Below are positions 57,049-62,456 of a DNA stretch of 64,000 bases, piece after piece. The translations under genes and the position numbers were made by a program. The DNA is from an uncultured Pseudomonadales bacterium (GTDB taxonomy: Bacteria; Patescibacteriota; Microgenomatia; UBA1400; PJMF01). The notes beneath the pieces are model-generated. The model was not told the origin of the DNA. It made no database searches and saw only the letters and a program-made list of their open reading frames with translations. The stretch is taken from NCBI GenBank assembly GCA_964583795.1, contig CAZOWX010000001.1:30569-94568 (forward strand), in the 5' to 3' direction. How positions within the stretch are numbered: the first letter of the stretch is position 1; each line of letters begins with the position of its first letter.

Positions 57049-57173
57049 CGTAAACTTGACAGCAATGGAGTATCTTTGAGATAGTGGTATCTTGCAATAT
57101 TTAGTAGTCTTGTAGAAAAAGAACCCAATATAAATTCCGCTACAGTCCTGGTTATAAAATATCTTTGACATTT

Positions 57174-59216
57174 ATGGTAGAAGACACAATTATCCTTCCC
57201 AATCAAGAAATCGCACAAACTGATCGCAAGAAGAAAAACCCAATGCATCATCTAAGCAAACTGTTTACTCCCAGTAAAAAACATTCCTCAAAAGAGGAAC
57301 TTATTCAACCACAGCTTTCTAAAAAAAAGAAAGGTCTGCGAACGTGGCATAAAGTCGTGGTTGCCATCGTATTGGTACTCGTCCTGGTTGGATCAGCAGT
57401 TGGTGCCGTTGGATACTACACACTTGGCATAGTCAAAAACTTGCAAGCGCAAGCCAATGAACTAAAAGTTGCTATTGGTGGAGTAAAAGATCAACTAAAG
57501 TCACAAAATCTGCCCGGAGCGAAGGCTGCTTTTAGCGATGTCCAGACAAAGCTTGATCGAATGAAAGTTGAGTATCAGCGCCTGTCATTTCTCTCGTCAC
57601 TTCCCATCGCTAACAATTACTATCAAGATGGCTTGCATGGGTTTAAGGCTGCTGAAGCTGGAGTCAGAGCCGGAGTAAAAACAATTGATGCCATAGTCCC
57701 GTACGCTGATGTATTGGGATTTGCTGGTGAAGGGACCTTCACTGGTGGCAGTGCAGAGAATCGCATTAAACTCTTATTAGATACACTCGGAAAAGTATCT
57801 CCTATTCTTGATGATATTAAAGGAGAACTGACTGCTGCTGAAACCGAGCTTAAAGCAATCAATCCAGATCGTTATCCCGACAAGATTCAAGGCATTGAAG
57901 TTCGTGGCAGCTTAGTTATGGGACAGCAAGTCATTCAAGATGTTGTTGATGGCATTGATGAGTTTCGTCCGGCGATAGAGGTACTACCACAAATTGCCGG
58001 AGCAGACGGAAAACGCAAAAAATACTTAGTAATCTTTCAAAATGACAACGAGTTGCGCCCAACCGGTGGGTTTATGACTGGATATGCTGCACTGTTCGTC
58101 GAGGATGGGAAAGTCACTCCAGAAAAAAGTGACGATATCTATGAGCTGGATAAAAAGTTTAACTCAAAAACTCCGATTCCAGCCATCTTGGGAAGATACC
58201 TAACGACTGAGAAAAAGTTTAATTTACGCGATATGAACATTTCGCCTGACTTTAAACTCTCGATGGACACATTTTACTCAAACTATAAAGAAATTAAAAG
58301 TGAACCGCAAAATATTGATGGAATCATCGCCGTTGATAGTGAGTTTCTATCTTCATTAGTAAAGGTACTTGGACCCATTGATGTTGCTGGATACGGCACA
58401 TTTAGTGCAGAAACTGATAAGCGCTGTGATTGTCCACAGATTATTTACTCACTTTCAGAGATTGTTGATCGGCCAACACCCTATATTCGACAAGACCGAA
58501 AGGGAATCTTAGCACCGATGATGCAGGCCATTTTGCACAAAGCCTACTCCTCTCCTAAAGAGGTTTGGCCCCAACTTTTCACACTCGCAAAGGAAGATAT
58601 TGAGCAAAAACACGTACAAATGTACTTCTTTGATGAAGAGTATCAAAAAGCAGCCGAGGCAGTAAATGTTGCTGGTCGGATGAATCCGGTCAAGGATAGT
58701 CATGATTACATGGCTGTTGTTGACTCAAATTTAGGCGGGGCTAAGTCAAATTTGTTTGTCACCCAAGAAGTAGAAGTGAAAGTTTCACCGGTACAAAACG
58801 GGATGATTACCAAAACAGTGACATTAAAATACAAAAATCCATTTCCTGGATCAAACTGTAACTTGGAAGCCGGACAACTCTGTCTGAATGCCCAGTTGAA
58901 AGATTGGGTGCGATTGTACATGCCACTCGGGTCAAAAATTGTTGAAACCAACGGTTTTGACGATGGGACTCAAAGTGAAGCAGTTGAAGAAGATCTCCCT
59001 GATTATCAGGTTGTTCAAGGCGTTTTTCGTCTCTCGCCACAATCAAACTCTTCTGTTCAAATCACGTACACAGTGCCGTATACAGATGAAAAAGTCTATC
59101 GCGCACAGTTGCGCAAACAAGGTGGGACTGGAAACGTGAAATATCTCTTTGATATCAATGGGAATCAAGAAGAAGTTATTTTAGACAAGGACAAAACAGT
59201 TGAAATTCCATTTTAG
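57174..59216 (+). CDS. Large membrane-anchored, predicted extracytoplasmic protein (DUF4012-like, tentative), unknown function
   Basis: A single N-terminal TM helix (VVVAIVLVLVLVGSAVGAVGYY) is followed by a ~600-aa soluble region containing NDNELRPTGGFMTGYAALF. It sits immediately after the priming transferase. Confidence 0.45.
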   Translation: MVEDTIILPNQEIAQTDRKKKNPMHHLSKLFTPSKKHSSKEELIQPQLSKKKKGLRTWHKVVVAIVLVLVLVGSAVGAVGYYTLGIVKNLQAQANELKVAIGGVKDQLKSQNLPGAKAAFSDVQTKLDRMKVEYQRLSFLSSLPIANNYYQDGLHGFKAAEAGVRAGVKTIDAIVPYADVLGFAGEGTFTGGSAENRIKLLLDTLGKVSPILDDIKGELTAAETELKAINPDRYPDKIQGIEVRGSLVMGQQVIQDVVDGIDEFRPAIEVLPQIAGADGKRKKYLVIFQNDNELRPTGGFMTGYAALFVEDGKVTPEKSDDIYELDKKFNSKTPIPAILGRYLTTEKKFNLRDMNISPDFKLSMDTFYSNYKEIKSEPQNIDGIIAVDSEFLSSLVKVLGPIDVAGYGTFSAETDKRCDCPQIIYSLSEIVDRPTPYIRQDRKGILAPMMQAILHKAYSSPKEVWPQLFTLAKEDIEQKHVQMYFFDEEYQKAAEAVNVAGRMNPVKDSHDYMAVVDSNLGGAKSNLFVTQEVEVKVSPVQNGMITKTVTLKYKNPFPGSNCNLEAGQLCLNAQLKDWVRLYMPLGSKIVETNGFDDGTQSEAVEEDLPDYQVVQGVFRLSPQSNSSVQITYTVPYTDEKVYRAQLRKQGGTGNVKYLFDINGNQEEVILDKDKTVEIPF

Positions 59217-59233
59217 AGACAAAGAGACTGCAC

Positions 59234-59773
59234 ATGAAATCGTATCCTTCAATTCACACACATGCAGTTGTTCTGAAACGGTCAAATGTTGGTGAAACAG
59301 ATCGGGTAATCACCTTATTTACTCAAAAGCACGGCAAGATTGTTTCGATTGCCAAAGGCTGTCGGAACTTACATTCATCTCGGCTCAGCACGCTAGAACC
59401 AGGAAATTTGGTTGATGTGTACTTTCTTCCAACAAAGGGTTTACCCATTCTCACTCAGACACAACTCATTAACGATTTTGTGCAAACGAAAAAGTCACTT
59501 AAAAAAATGAAACAATTGCTACAGGTTCTGGAAATCGTTGATGCACTTTCTGTCGAAGACGAAAATACTCCAGTTTTTGTTCGGCTCACCAAAATTTTAG
59601 AAGCACTCAATTCTTTTCCCATTTTTCGAGCGATTCGATCGGAGCTTTCAGCTCTGATTGAGGAGTTTGGCTTTCAACCCCTTGCTGAGACTCAATACCA
59701 AACCATTAGTGAGTATGTTGCAACACTGAGTGATAAAAACCTCAAAAGTTTTGAGTTTTTGACAATCAAGTAA
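59234..59773 (+). CDS. recO: DNA repair protein RecO (short form, 179 aa)
   Basis: The N-terminal OB-fold region VVLKRSNVGETDRVITLFTQKHGKIVSIAKG matches the RecO N-domain. It is shorter than typical RecO (~240–260 aa). Confidence 0.65.
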   Translation: MKSYPSIHTHAVVLKRSNVGETDRVITLFTQKHGKIVSIAKGCRNLHSSRLSTLEPGNLVDVYFLPTKGLPILTQTQLINDFVQTKKSLKKMKQLLQVLEIVDALSVEDENTPVFVRLTKILEALNSFPIFRAIRSELSALIEEFGFQPLAETQYQTISEYVATLSDKNLKSFEFLTIK

Positions 59774-59788
59774 TAAGTATGATACAAT
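59759..59788 (+). promoter_or_regulatory. Sigma70-type promoter of the glyQS leader: TTGACA -35, 18-nt spacer, extended -10 TGaTACAAT
   Basis: TTGACA 59759–64, TG 59780–81, TACAAT 59783–88. It overlaps the last codons of recO. Confidence 0.6.
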
Positions 59789-59794
59789 TTTTCT

Positions 59795-59958
59795 AGTATT
59801 TACCCTTTGGCAAGGATTTTCACAAATACTGATAACAATAAAGTGGTCAAGTTCACTGGGACATCATGACTTGACAAGTAGGGTGGAACCGCGATTCCGT
59901 TATTTGAGGAACCGTCCCTATGCAGTAGTATCTATACTGTGTAGAGACGGTTTTTTTG
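59795..59958 (+). ncRNA. T-box riboswitch leader (glycine-specific) with antiterminator/terminator
   Basis: The T-box motif AGGGTGGAACCGCG lies at 59880–93. A candidate Stem I with GGC-A lies at 59809–12. The antiterminator is taggg…cccta. A mutually exclusive 17-bp terminator stem (59911–51) is followed by T7. Confidence 0.65.
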
Positions 59959-60132
59959 CGTTTTCAACTAAAATACAGTAGCAAACGCAACTCGCCATAG
60001 CTTTACTGTGTCCTCTCGTAGTCCCGCAGTGCGGGACGAAGTGGGAGCGACGGCGGGTAAAGTTTAGGTAAATGCACAAGCCAATTTCTACACGTGCTCG
60101 CTTTTTCAAAAACAGCGAGAGAAAGGGCGTTT

Positions 60133-61527
60133 ATGACAGACACCACTGTCACCCTCGAACAAATTGTTTCTTTGACAAAACGCCGTGGTTTTGTGTTCAG
60201 AACATCAGAAATTTATGGCGGGCTAGCTAACTCTTATGACTATGGTCCTTTGGGAGCACAACTGATGCGCACCATTCGGAATTTATGGTGGCAAGAGCTG
60301 GTTGAGAAACGTGAAGATATGGTCGGCCTTGATTCACAAATTATCCTGCATCCACAAACTTGGGTTGCATCGGGACATGTGAGTTCATTTACTGACCCGC
60401 TGGTAGAAGACAAGGTTACCCACAAACGCTATCGAGCTGATCATTTAATAGAAGCCTGGGTTGAAAACCATCCGGACAGAGTAGAACCAGGTTTTGAAGT
60501 CGTGAATCTCAATCTTGATCAAATGGCTCAGTTCATCAACGATCAATCAATCAAAAGCCCGGATGGTAATGAGATCACTCCACCGCAGACGTTTAACTTA
60601 CTTTTTGAGACCTCAATTGGCTCAGTGAGTGGTGAAAAATCGAAAGTGTACTTACGCGGGGAAACCGCACAAGGAATTTTCTCTAACTTTAAACAAGTGC
60701 TCGATACGACTCGGGTGCAACTTCCGTTTGGGATTGGGCAAATTGGAAAAAGTTTCCGAAATGAAATTACCACAGGGCAATTTATCTTTCGCACGCTTGA
60801 GTTTGAGCAAGCTGAGATCGAGTACTTCTTTGATCCTGATTTGCTTCCTTGGGAACAAGCACTTGATCAATGGAAACAGATCATGTGGCAATTCGTCACT
60901 CAAACTCTCGGTGTGAAACCTGAGCACTTACGGTGGAGACAACATACCGATAAAGAGCGCAGTCACTACAGCAAGGACACGTACGATCTAGAGTACCTGT
61001 TCCCATTTGGGTGGAAAGAACTCTGGGGAGTTGCATATCGTACCAACTATGACTTGATGCAACATATCAAACGTTCAAAAGTTGCTCTTGAGTACACTGA
61101 TCCGTTTACTCAAAAAAAGTTGGTACCACACGTCATTGAACCCGCTTTGGGACTCAACAGGGTCTTTTTAATGGTGTTGTGTGATAGTTATTGGAAAGAT
61201 GAAACAAAAAATCGGACAGTGCTTCGCCTACAACCCAACATTGCTCGATATCAGGCAGCAGTCTTTCCATTGGTACGCAATAAACCAGAACTCGTTGATA
61301 AAGCCAAAACTGTGTATGAACAGTTGAAAAAACAGTTTAGAGTTGCTTGGGATGACCGTGGCAATATTGGAAAGCGCTATTTAAGCCAAGATGAAATAGG
61401 AACACCATGGTGCATCACAGTCGATTACCAAACTCTAACAGACGACACGGTCACTCTGCGCAATCGCGATACAGCGAATCAGCTTCGAGTTGCAGTGATT
61501 GATCTGGAGAAACAGTTGCAGTCATAG
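60133..61527 (+). CDS. glyQS: Glycine--tRNA ligase, homodimeric α2 type
   Basis: FVFRTSEIYGGLANSYDYGPLG carries class II aaRS motifs. Length 464 aa. An AAAGGG RBS sits 5 nt upstream. Confidence 0.9.
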   Translation: MTDTTVTLEQIVSLTKRRGFVFRTSEIYGGLANSYDYGPLGAQLMRTIRNLWWQELVEKREDMVGLDSQIILHPQTWVASGHVSSFTDPLVEDKVTHKRYRADHLIEAWVENHPDRVEPGFEVVNLNLDQMAQFINDQSIKSPDGNEITPPQTFNLLFETSIGSVSGEKSKVYLRGETAQGIFSNFKQVLDTTRVQLPFGIGQIGKSFRNEITTGQFIFRTLEFEQAEIEYFFDPDLLPWEQALDQWKQIMWQFVTQTLGVKPEHLRWRQHTDKERSHYSKDTYDLEYLFPFGWKELWGVAYRTNYDLMQHIKRSKVALEYTDPFTQKKLVPHVIEPALGLNRVFLMVLCDSYWKDETKNRTVLRLQPNIARYQAAVFPLVRNKPELVDKAKTVYEQLKKQFRVAWDDRGNIGKRYLSQDEIGTPWCITVDYQTLTDDTVTLRNRDTANQLRVAVIDLEKQLQS

Positions 61528-61652: not shown

Positions 61653-62456
61653 ATGGCACTTATGAAAAAACTCGGACTGCTCCTCATACTGCTGTTGGCT
61701 ATTACTCTTGGTGGATGTAAAAAGAAGACAACAGATGCTGCCCCGACACCAACACCAGCAAAGAAGAAAATCAGTAAACCAGTAAATCAGATTTCGTATG
61801 AAGAGCGTCCATACGTAGTAATGGTGCCCACACTCAATCGAGAAGTCGATGTCATTATTAAAACACTTCCAAAAGCTGCTGACGGAGTCGATTATTTGTC
61901 AGAGTACCAACATGAAACATCTTTGGGAGGCAACGAGCAGTTCATCGATCTGAAAAAAGGCCTACCTGCGACAAAGCAGTTCTCGTTGTATTCCAGAAGT
62001 GCTGGTGGAAAAACTAGCTACGAGGAAGATGTGAGAGGAGGCACTCTTACTCTGAATTTTACTGGACAAAATGAGTACACCCTCAAACAAGATTGGGCCT
62101 ACTATGATCGAGTAAACGCGAAAAGCTCAACCAAGACGAAGGCTTTACGATCACAAGATGGTCATTTTGAAATCAGTATCGATCCTTCAAATAAAATTAG
62201 TTACGTCATCATTTACAACTCACCCGGGAGCCCAATGCCCATGAATGGTAAACGATTATCAGAAGTGTATACAGTTGCCACCTCCAATGCTGTCACTAAA
62301 AAAGTCGATATCACTATTGAACTACCTGAGCAGGGAACTGGTAAGCTCTATGGTTGGGATGGTAAAGCGTGGACGCAGCTTGAATCTTCTGTCAGTGGCA
62401 ATGCTGTCAAGGGCACACAAGTTCCTTTCCTGGAAGCATATGTTGTAGCTCAGTAA
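61653..62456 (+). CDS. Lipoprotein, unknown function
   Basis: The signal peptide LLLILLLAITLGGC has the lipobox LGGC. A Lys/Pro/Thr-rich linker is followed by a β-rich domain. Confidence 0.5.
   Translation: MALMKKLGLLLILLLAITLGGCKKKTTDAAPTPTPAKKKISKPVNQISYEERPYVVMVPTLNREVDVIIKTLPKAADGVDYLSEYQHETSLGGNEQFIDLKKGLPATKQFSLYSRSAGGKTSYEEDVRGGTLTLNFTGQNEYTLKQDWAYYDRVNAKSSTKTKALRSQDGHFEISIDPSNKISYVIIYNSPGSPMPMNGKRLSEVYTVATSNAVTKKVDITIELPEQGTGKLYGWDGKAWTQLESSVSGNAVKGTQVPFLEAYVVAQ

Follow-up and report, generated by a model that had tools for sequence, protein, structure and literature searches.

A putative reduced-architecture glycine T-box upstream of the glycyl-tRNA synthetase gene of a Patescibacteria genome, with relatives in Patescibacteria and Chloroflexota

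T-boxes are the textbook example of tRNA sensing by an mRNA, and the current model divides them into two classes. Transcriptional T-boxes generally need a long Stem I carrying a module that binds the tRNA elbow, whereas a truncated Stem I is found in translational, mostly actinobacterial T-boxes, in which Stem II is essential and the truncated Stem I alone shows barely detectable tRNA binding (2020 review, PMC7583486). Papers from 2024 and 2026 give the same two-class picture. In the papers examined, a specifier placed in a terminal loop is described solely for ileS T-boxes that act on translation and depend on Stem II. One paper reports divergent specifier loops in glycine T-boxes of Chloroflexi, but the reduced architecture presented below is not described there. 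Our literature search turned up no paper that connects T-boxes with Patescibacteria or with the candidate phyla radiation; an earlier description is possible, Sherwood 2015 and Vitreschak 2008 having been outside the search. Here we analyze the leader of glyS, the gene for glycyl-tRNA synthetase (GlyRS), in a 64,000-nt stretch of DNA (the window) from an uncultured Pseudomonadales bacterium (GCA_964583795.1, contig CAZOWX010000001.1, positions 30,569–94,568, forward strand), for which the GTDB lineage is Bacteria; Patescibacteriota; Microgenomatia; UBA1400; PJMF01. Judged from its sequence, this leader is very probably a glycine T-box, namely a transcription attenuator of reduced architecture that controls the GlyRS gene, which would explain how that gene is regulated in an organism with a reduced genome.

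Two sets of GlyRS relatives were used for comparison, one genome per species (L001–L080, GlyRS 63–76% identical to that of the window) and metagenome loci (L081–L160), and the hosts of these 160 related glyS loci are Patescibacteria and Chloroflexota. The closest relative used (L001; JBDTME01) has a GlyRS 76% identical to the window's, and a metagenome scan for closer relatives found nothing above 72% identity. An exact-protein look-up yielded one Logan contig from a near-identical strain (DRR783857_3333, here L161), with 3 mismatches in 3,980 nt, and a separate exact look-up with the window's RecO gave no match. A covariance model, R1, was built from a MAFFT alignment of 32 other glyS leaders, with neither the window nor L001 among them.

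At the curated gathering thresholds, Rfam gave no match anywhere in the 64-kb window. Run permissively, its T-box model RF00230 matched 59721–59922 with 43 bits against a gathering score of 93 (E = 2.9e-8 locally, 3.7e-6 window-wide), and this was the sole Rfam match in the 64 kb. A scan with this model had been proposed as a check on an earlier reading of the sequence, the first-pass annotation, and its outcome is thus significant by E-value and insufficient by the curated threshold. In the RF00230 alignment Stem III, the T-box sequence and the antiterminator are placed with posterior probability near 1, whereas the columns of the long Stem I are forced over the end of recO and the promoter with low posterior probability and many non-canonical pairs. 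The score falls short of 93 because the long Stem I of the model has no counterpart in the window. R1 matches 59789–59920 over its full model length with 53.5 bits (E = 3.6e-14; the next best match in the window reaches 9.8 bits), so the class model fits better than Rfam's general model although it was built without the window. The E-value of RF00230 and the independent E-value of R1 place these features beyond chance.

On direct reading of the sequence, every feature listed in the first-pass annotation was present where it had been placed, so that the observation itself is confirmed. RF00230, R1 and the folds agree on a glycine T-box ahead of the GlyRS gene, in which GGC is the specifier, the bulge contains UGGA, and an antiterminator competes with a terminator. 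Its interpretation was partly right and partly wrong, and it missed the most unusual feature, the short Stem I with a specifier in its terminal loop. This Stem I is a short hairpin (59795–59830) spanning about 36 nt. Its 7-bp basal helix (59795–59801 with 59824–59830) leads into an asymmetric internal loop with 2 nt on the 5′ side (AC) and 8 nt on the 3′ side (AUUUUCAC), without the GA motif of a K-turn, followed by a 4-bp apical helix of CCUU (59804–07) with AAGG (59812–15), which is reduced to CC/GG if the loop opens to CUUUGGCAA. Folded alone, the 5′ part of the leader shows neither an internal specifier loop nor an AG bulge and lacks a distal loop or platform, and the GGC followed by A, annotated earlier as lying in a short stem, is in the terminal loop of that stem and not in an internal specifier loop. 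There is no Stem II or IIA/B pseudoknot, as the earlier annotation had said of Stem II, because the 15-nt linker is too short. Stem III of T-boxes is flanked by 5′-RRRNG and AA-3′ (PMC7778990), and the window's Stem III, with AAGUG on its 5′ side and AA on its 3′ side, matches this motif.

The T-box sequence itself, AGGGUGGAACCGCG at 59880–59893, fits the conserved T-box sequence GGGUGGNACCGCG with posterior probability near 1 in both the Rfam and the R1 alignment. Its 7-nt bulge is UGGAACC (59884–90), of which we read UGGA as pairing with the UCCA of the tRNA 3′ end. The antiterminator is built of helix A1 (UAGGG 59879–83 with CCCUA 59916–20) and helix A2 (GCG(A)UUC with GAA(C)CGU), and the 5′ arm of the terminator reuses the antiterminator 3′ strand (ACCGUCCCUA). 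The two structures are mutually exclusive, and folding of the leader, another of the proposed checks, gives −26.7 kcal/mol for the terminator versus −14.0 kcal/mol for the antiterminator; the terminator is much more stable, and therefore the default state would be off. The 17-bp terminator stem with U7 that had been annotated does exist, the 17 bp being the core of a 21-bp stem. With the terminator formed, the minimum free energy fold of the complete leader pairs the 5′ strand of Stem I (UUUACCCUUUG, 59799–59809) with the freed T-box strand (..AGGGUGG.., 59880–59887); this pairing could be an artefact of folding or could further lock the off state.

By homology with characterized T-boxes we infer tRNA binding and a decision on readthrough, which may proceed as follows. 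Transcription would begin a few bases before 59795 and the nascent RNA would fold the ~36-nt Stem I, displaying GGC-A in the terminal loop; beyond a 15-nt linker, Stem III and the T-box bulge would come next. As uncharged tRNA-Gly(GCC) builds up, its anticodon would bind GGC, and the UGGA of the bulge would pair with the free UCCA 3′ end of the tRNA; these contacts would hold the weaker antiterminator (−14 kcal/mol), block the stronger terminator (−27 kcal/mol) and allow readthrough into glyS. With charged tRNA, or none, the terminator would form and transcription would stop at about 59957. Unlike in the described T-boxes, there would be neither a distal module of Stem I at the tRNA elbow nor a Stem II to buttress the codon-anticodon helix.

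A candidate basis for such binding is found in the specifier loop. The modal loop of the related leaders, UUGGCAA in a hairpin loop of 7–9 nt, is the exact complement of the whole anticodon loop UUGCCAA, which is present, together with U73, in E. coli tRNA-Gly(GCC); Bacillus tRNA-Gly(GCC) has the same UUGCCAA loop. Canonical T-box structures contact the anticodon through three base pairs plus stacking. Pairing of U(-1)/U(-2) with A37/A38 could turn this 3-bp contact into a 5-bp loop-loop helix and so make up for the contacts that are absent. Loop-loop "kissing", by which anticodon loops can be recognized, offers an analogy only: the whole-loop complementarity is similar, and pairing beyond the three codon bases is what we infer. 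At the other end of the tRNA, the UGGA bulge predicts a tRNA-Gly with U73. ARAGORN found no tRNA-Gly gene in the window and 109 loci, the tRNAs detected being those for Leu, Lys, Ser and Pro.

The window is one of many loci with such a leader. A motif search found a T-box core upstream of glyS in 50 loci, with NGGCA nearly always 51–75 nt upstream of it atop a short hairpin, and specifiers in relatives were located by anchoring on the NGGCA nearest to the core. An unanchored search for any GGC-containing hairpin before the core was dropped because in many loci it selected hairpins unrelated to the element. R1 matches 48 of the 80 genome loci and 37 of the 80 metagenome loci (85/160), in every case on the glyS strand and directly upstream of glyS. 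None of 20 class leaders tested reaches the Rfam gathering score, and none of 20 glyS loci without an R1 match has a canonical T-box at the Rfam threshold. The element is thus common in this GlyRS clade and is missed by standard annotation at the Rfam threshold; a T-box in a genome of Patescibacteria-like content, singled out earlier as notable, is so relative to the literature and not within the clade. With a whole class overlooked in this way, the regulation of aminoacyl-tRNA synthetases in Patescibacteria and Chloroflexota would be under-reported, and a model such as R1 would recover the class.

Covariation was assessed for a structure specified by hand, comprising the basal and apical helices of Stem I, Stem III and the antiterminator helices A1 and A2. 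In the MAFFT alignment of the 32 leaders, 81% of cells hold standard pairs compared with 37–49% when partners are slid by 1–3 columns, and the covariation score is 0.36 versus 0.08–0.15 in the slid controls. In four of the five measures the observed value exceeded those of all 500 shuffles of this alignment, and in the fifth it was reached by one shuffle. MAFFT by itself placed Stem III incorrectly and displaced Stem I in some rows, which was remedied with the covariance model. In the resulting model-guided alignment of 49 leaders, which is fitted to the modelled structure, 90% of cells pair against at most 44% when slid and the covariation score is 0.62 against at most 0.10. Double-sided changes occur there in every pair of Stem I and Stem III, and all 7 modelled Stem III pairs covary. 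The outermost A1 pair is changed on both sides in 14–27 sequences.

Across the 49 leaders Stem I spans 17–37 nt (median 34), a K-turn signature is present in 36, the linker to Stem III measures 11–21 nt (median 15), with no room for Stem II or IIA/B, and Stem III is flanked by AAGNG on the 5′ side in most and by AA on the 3′ side in all 49. Counts for the specifier, bulge and terminator were made on 77 unique leaders. The GGC loop motif occurs in 75 of these, flanked by U(-1) in 68, A(+1) in 68, A(+2) in 57 and U(-2) in 51; the bulge is UGGA in 74; and ~68 have a terminator, a hairpin that starts in the GUCCC strand of the antiterminator and is followed by a U-tract. The typical Chloroflexota Stem I reads GCAGC-aaUGAa-CGC-CUUUGGCAA-GCG-gGA-GCUGC, that is, a 5-bp C-stem, a 3-nt bulge with tandem G·A pairs, a 3-bp helix and a 9-nt terminal specifier loop. 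We take the tandem G·A bulge of this form to be the familiar K-turn at the base of Stem I in other T-boxes.

How does this class compare with the described ones? With the canonical glyQS/glyS T-boxes (B. subtilis, O. iheyensis, G. kaustophilus, S. aureus; RF00230) it shares the GGC specifier followed by a purine, the UGGA bulge, the lack of Stem II or IIA/B, a Stem III with RRRNG...AA flanks, the competition of antiterminator and terminator and the control of a GlyRS gene, and most of its members also share the K-turn at the base of Stem I. It differs from them in a Stem I of about 35 nt instead of roughly 85–100 nt, in a specifier placed in a terminal loop and not in an internal loop with an S-turn, and in lacking the AG bulge and distal loop (the interdigitated T-loop module) that meet the tRNA elbow. 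In addition, it lies far below the RF00230 gathering score and its hosts are Patescibacteria and Chloroflexota as opposed to Firmicutes. With the ultrashort (US) Stem I ileS T-boxes of Actinobacteria (M. tuberculosis, M. smegmatis) it shares a short Stem I, a terminal-loop specifier and the absence of an elbow module. However, the US class is stated to regulate only ileS in response to tRNA-Ile, needs Stem II and the IIA/B pseudoknot for tRNA binding and acts on translation through a sequestrator of the Shine-Dalgarno (SD) sequence, whereas the reduced class precedes glyS with a GGC specifier, has a linker of 11–21 nt without Stem II and carries an intrinsic terminator. The reduced class therefore combines the terminal-loop specifier of the US class with the Stem II-less, terminator-coupled and glycine-specific traits of glyQS, and is a member of neither.

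A broader proposal, which we regard as possible and advance tentatively, is that Patescibacteria and Chloroflexota share a third, so far unclassified T-box architecture. It would be a minimal sensor of ~125 nt composed of an optional K-turn, a ~35-nt Stem I with a terminal-loop specifier, a 15-nt linker, Stem III and the antiterminator, making its terminator decision co-transcriptionally and holding the tRNA only by the anticodon loop and the 3′ end; with its conserved UU-GGC-AA loop, the sensor may form further pairs with A37/A38 and U33/U32 that stand in for the elbow platform and for Stem II. If so, neither the need of transcriptional T-boxes for the elbow nor that of a truncated Stem I for Stem II would be general, and the two phyla would be tied by a derived molecular character that they have in common, whether through shared descent or because glyS was transferred along with its leader. 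One may then ask at what speed and with what affinity anticodon and 3′-end contacts alone could capture a tRNA during transcription, and the class would provide the smallest natural T-box scaffold for structural and engineering work.

Several points weigh against a functional glycine sensor of this kind. The published findings on truncated Stem I elements and on the elbow requirement mean that function here would need some other basis. The K-turn GA motif, kept in 36 of the 49 leaders, is lost in the window, in L001 and in a few other leaders; the apical helix of the window is only 2–4 bp, and its Stem I is the weakest of the class. U73 and the anticodon loop are assumed from general bacterial tRNA-Gly because no tRNA-Gly gene was retrieved. 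Finally, the model-guided alignment is biased towards the modelled structure, and the MAFFT figure is the less biased of the two.

The window's weak Stem I suggests another reading, namely that the leader is a decaying relic which, having lost the K-turn and most of the apical helix, no longer responds to tRNA, with glyS expressed by leaky readthrough or from elsewhere. The missing GA motif, an R1 score of 53.5 bits that is below that of most members and the 175-nt insertion between switch and gene are all consistent with such decay. The comparison with L001 argues otherwise. From the linker to the terminator the two leaders are 85% identical and from the −35 box to the U-tract 80%, compared with 44% at third codon positions of glyS and 47% over the 3′ end of recO; since the leader is far more conserved than these regions, it is under selection. 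Stem I is only 60% identical in sequence with its helices kept, the basal helix being AGUAUUU/AAAUACU in the window and UAUUGA/UCAAUA in L001 and the apical hairpin the same in both, so that the helices are maintained by different sequences. The promoter, specifier, RRRNG/AA flanks, UGGA bulge and terminator/antiterminator overlap are all intact, no alternative promoter was found in 59000–61000, and a non-functional switch whose terminator (−27 kcal/mol) precedes the sole GlyRS gene observed here would carry a cost. Decay with loss of the tRNA response is thus improbable, and the window's copy, to judge from its conservation, is under selection, though at the reduced end of the class.

The segment between terminator and glyS bears on a further alternative, which was also the first-pass interpretation: an ordinary T-box of the glyQS type, with a long Stem I and lacking Stem II, plus another regulatory RNA, independent of the first, within the extra ~170 nt. 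The first part agrees with the absence of Stem II, as in B. subtilis glyQS, but is refuted for Stem I, which at ~36 nt carries its specifier in the terminal loop, has no internal specifier loop, AG bulge or distal module and leaves Rfam at 43 bits versus 93; the claimed match to known glyQS T-boxes does not hold. As regards the second part, the segment contains a long imperfect hairpin (~59999–60064) capped by GTCCCGC-AGU-GCGGGAC (GTCCCGCAGTGCGGGAC, 60021–37), and a hairpin of CUCGCU (60097–102) with AGCGAG (60114–119) just before the SD-like AAAGGG (60122–27), next to the ribosome-binding site. It is GC-rich relative to its surroundings (0.49–0.54 versus 0.28–0.47 in flanking 100-nt windows) and folds somewhat better than shuffles on the plus strand (z = −2.4, against −1.2 on the minus strand), which is weak evidence at best. 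Yet the segment is absent from L001, where similarity to the window stops right after the U-tract and the ribosome-binding site follows ~30 nt later; it resembles nothing in the 160 loci (blastn-short, nhmmer), does not recur elsewhere in the window and has no Rfam match even in permissive mode. No second promoter was found in 59000–61000, and the fold shows that the SD-like AAAGGG is not sequestered by the adjoining hairpin. At the same place ~10 other class members have >110 nt separating the start codon from the terminator, an interval occupied by unrelated sequence with local repeat hairpins among it, and the site appears to tolerate insertions. A second regulatory layer is accordingly not borne out, and the combined reading is very unlikely.

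With the leader read as a reduced glycine T-box, the extra segment is not a conserved feature and is most likely, on the sequence comparison, an insertion specific to this lineage; that it acts in mRNA stability or processing is conceivable but unsupported. Two other candidate identities were rejected: as a coding region it holds only short open reading frames (ORFs) of 36–63 aa in various frames, none supported, and as a repeat or mobile element it has no repeat in the window and no similarity in the 160 loci. Among the loci the GTCCCGCAGTGCGGGAC hairpin pattern occurs only in L161, and five exact 17-mer matches to the hairpin in viral contigs are due to chance, their flanks being random. The L161 contig begins exactly at the first base of this hairpin (window 60021), probably an assembly break at the inverted repeat, the alternative being a strain difference upstream.

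It is scarcely credible that the leader acts on translation as the actinobacterial US ileS T-boxes do, with the "terminator" serving as a sequestrator of the ribosome-binding site: a terminal-loop specifier is so far known only from translational T-boxes and a few members, such as L005, have a helix whose 3′ arm lies over the SD sequence a few bases before the ATG, but in the window the helix is followed by U7, with the SD ~165 nt downstream and unpaired with the helix, and ~68 of the 77 members have a hairpin and U-tract.

Table 1. Predicted features of the glyS leader and its flanking genes, in coordinates of the 64,000-nt window.
Feature	Position	Strand	Basis and details
recO, short form, 179 aa	59234–59773	+	TIGR00613, 79 bits, profile positions 2–145 of 239
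Sigma-70-type promoter	59759–59788	+	TTGACA 59759–59764, 18-nt spacer, TG 59780–81, TACAAT 59783–59788
Reduced Stem I	59794–59831	+	folds; aligned to Stem I of R1; layout as in 48/49 leaders
Specifier GGC (glycine codon) with 3′ purine A	59809–59812 (GGC 59809–11)	+	terminal loop of Stem I, context CUUUGGCAA
Linker, single-stranded, A-rich, ending in AAGUG (RRRNG motif)	59832–59845	+	length 15 nt
Stem III hairpin, followed by AA 59876–77	59846–59875	+	Rfam and R1 alignments, fold
Antiterminator	59879–59920	+	−14.0 kcal/mol; high posterior probability in Rfam and R1 alignments
Intrinsic terminator	59906–59957	+	stem 59906–59956, 21 bp including pairs reaching into the U-tract; U7 59951–57
Extra leader, ~175 nt, probably lineage-specific	59958–60132	+	absent in L001; no similarity elsewhere
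glyS, single-chain dimeric (alpha2-type) glycine–tRNA ligase, 464 aa	60133–61527	+	NF003211, 591 bits; TIGR00389 glyS_dimeric, 495 bits

The features of the locus are collected in Table 1. The promoter, annotated earlier as near-consensus and lying in the 3′ end of recO, was found as described: it matches 11 of 12 consensus positions plus the extended TG with an 18-nt spacer, and is the sole promoter-like site in a scan of 59000–61000. Its −35 box lies inside recO, in the last codons of the 3′ end (stop codon 59771–73), and this box (TTGACAAT) and a −10 box are kept in L001. The transcription start is predicted at about 59794–59796. The RecO of the window lacks the C-terminal part of the TIGR00613 profile. 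Downstream of glyS lie mraZ and rsmH. A 683-aa ORF upstream of recO (57165–59216) and a 267-aa ORF between glyS and mraZ (61653–62456) have no NCBIfam match at E ≤ 0.001.

A number of the relatives carry unexpected taxonomic labels. Metagenome-assembled genomes (MAGs) labelled Pseudomonadales, Gammaproteobacteria and the like include L004, L005, L009, L014, L019, L027, L029, L033, L042, L067, L068 and L070, and further oddly labelled MAGs are L003 ("Vitreimonas") and L020 ("Methylococcaceae"). Their GlyRS are 64–72% identical to the window's, and several have the recO-leader-glyS order of the window with a RecO C-terminus of the form ..KSF(E/D)YL.. ending just upstream. These Pseudomonadales and Gammaproteobacteria labels look wrong because the recO-leader-glyS arrangement is common to several of the MAGs and the window; in this respect they behave like Patescibacteria.

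Variation within the class takes several forms. In L003, L005, L018, L107 and L114 a helix competes with the antiterminator without a clear U-tract, and in L005 (2949–2997) its 3′ arm covers an AAGGA Shine-Dalgarno sequence a few bases before the ATG. L005, L003, L107 and L018 look translational or ambiguous, and the reduced T-box may be coupled to translation in some lineages. L067 (2666–2755) apparently lacks Stem III, with 4 nt in its place compared with a median of 27, and keeps the short Stem I, the T-box bulge and the terminator; its glyS starts ~207 nt past the terminator. G+C-rich insertions of repeat hairpins, up to ~118 nt, are found in or beside Stem III in L061 (2683–2891), L065 (2755–2939) and L069 (2479–2658). 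Similar repeat hairpins follow the terminator in several Chloroflexota loci, including CCCCCACCCTAACC.TCCCCCTG.GAGGGGGAGGG in L031 and L043, GTAGCCGCGGTTTCTTACCGCG in L034 and L036 and GTCGCC... in L061, while L004 and L009 have hairpins resembling GTCAT(T/C)CTG..GAAGGCAGGAAT.

Both tRNA-reading positions also vary in a few leaders. The bulge is UGGG in L072 (2902) and L136 (1412) and UGGC in one other leader; from their sequences, these predict a tRNA-Gly with C73 or G73, or a different tRNA. In a Caldilineaceae-like subgroup GGC is followed by G and not A, with the loop AGUGGCGUA in L051, L095, L100 and L101 and CGCGGCGUU in L013 and L114; the terminator scan detected no recognizable terminator in L051, L095, L100 and L101, and these GGC-G leaders may be a sub-variant. 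Lastly, L140 has tandem R1 matches, a partial one (1155–1228, model positions 7–80, 19 bits) lying just upstream of a full one (1243–1363), which could be a duplicated Stem I/Stem III module.

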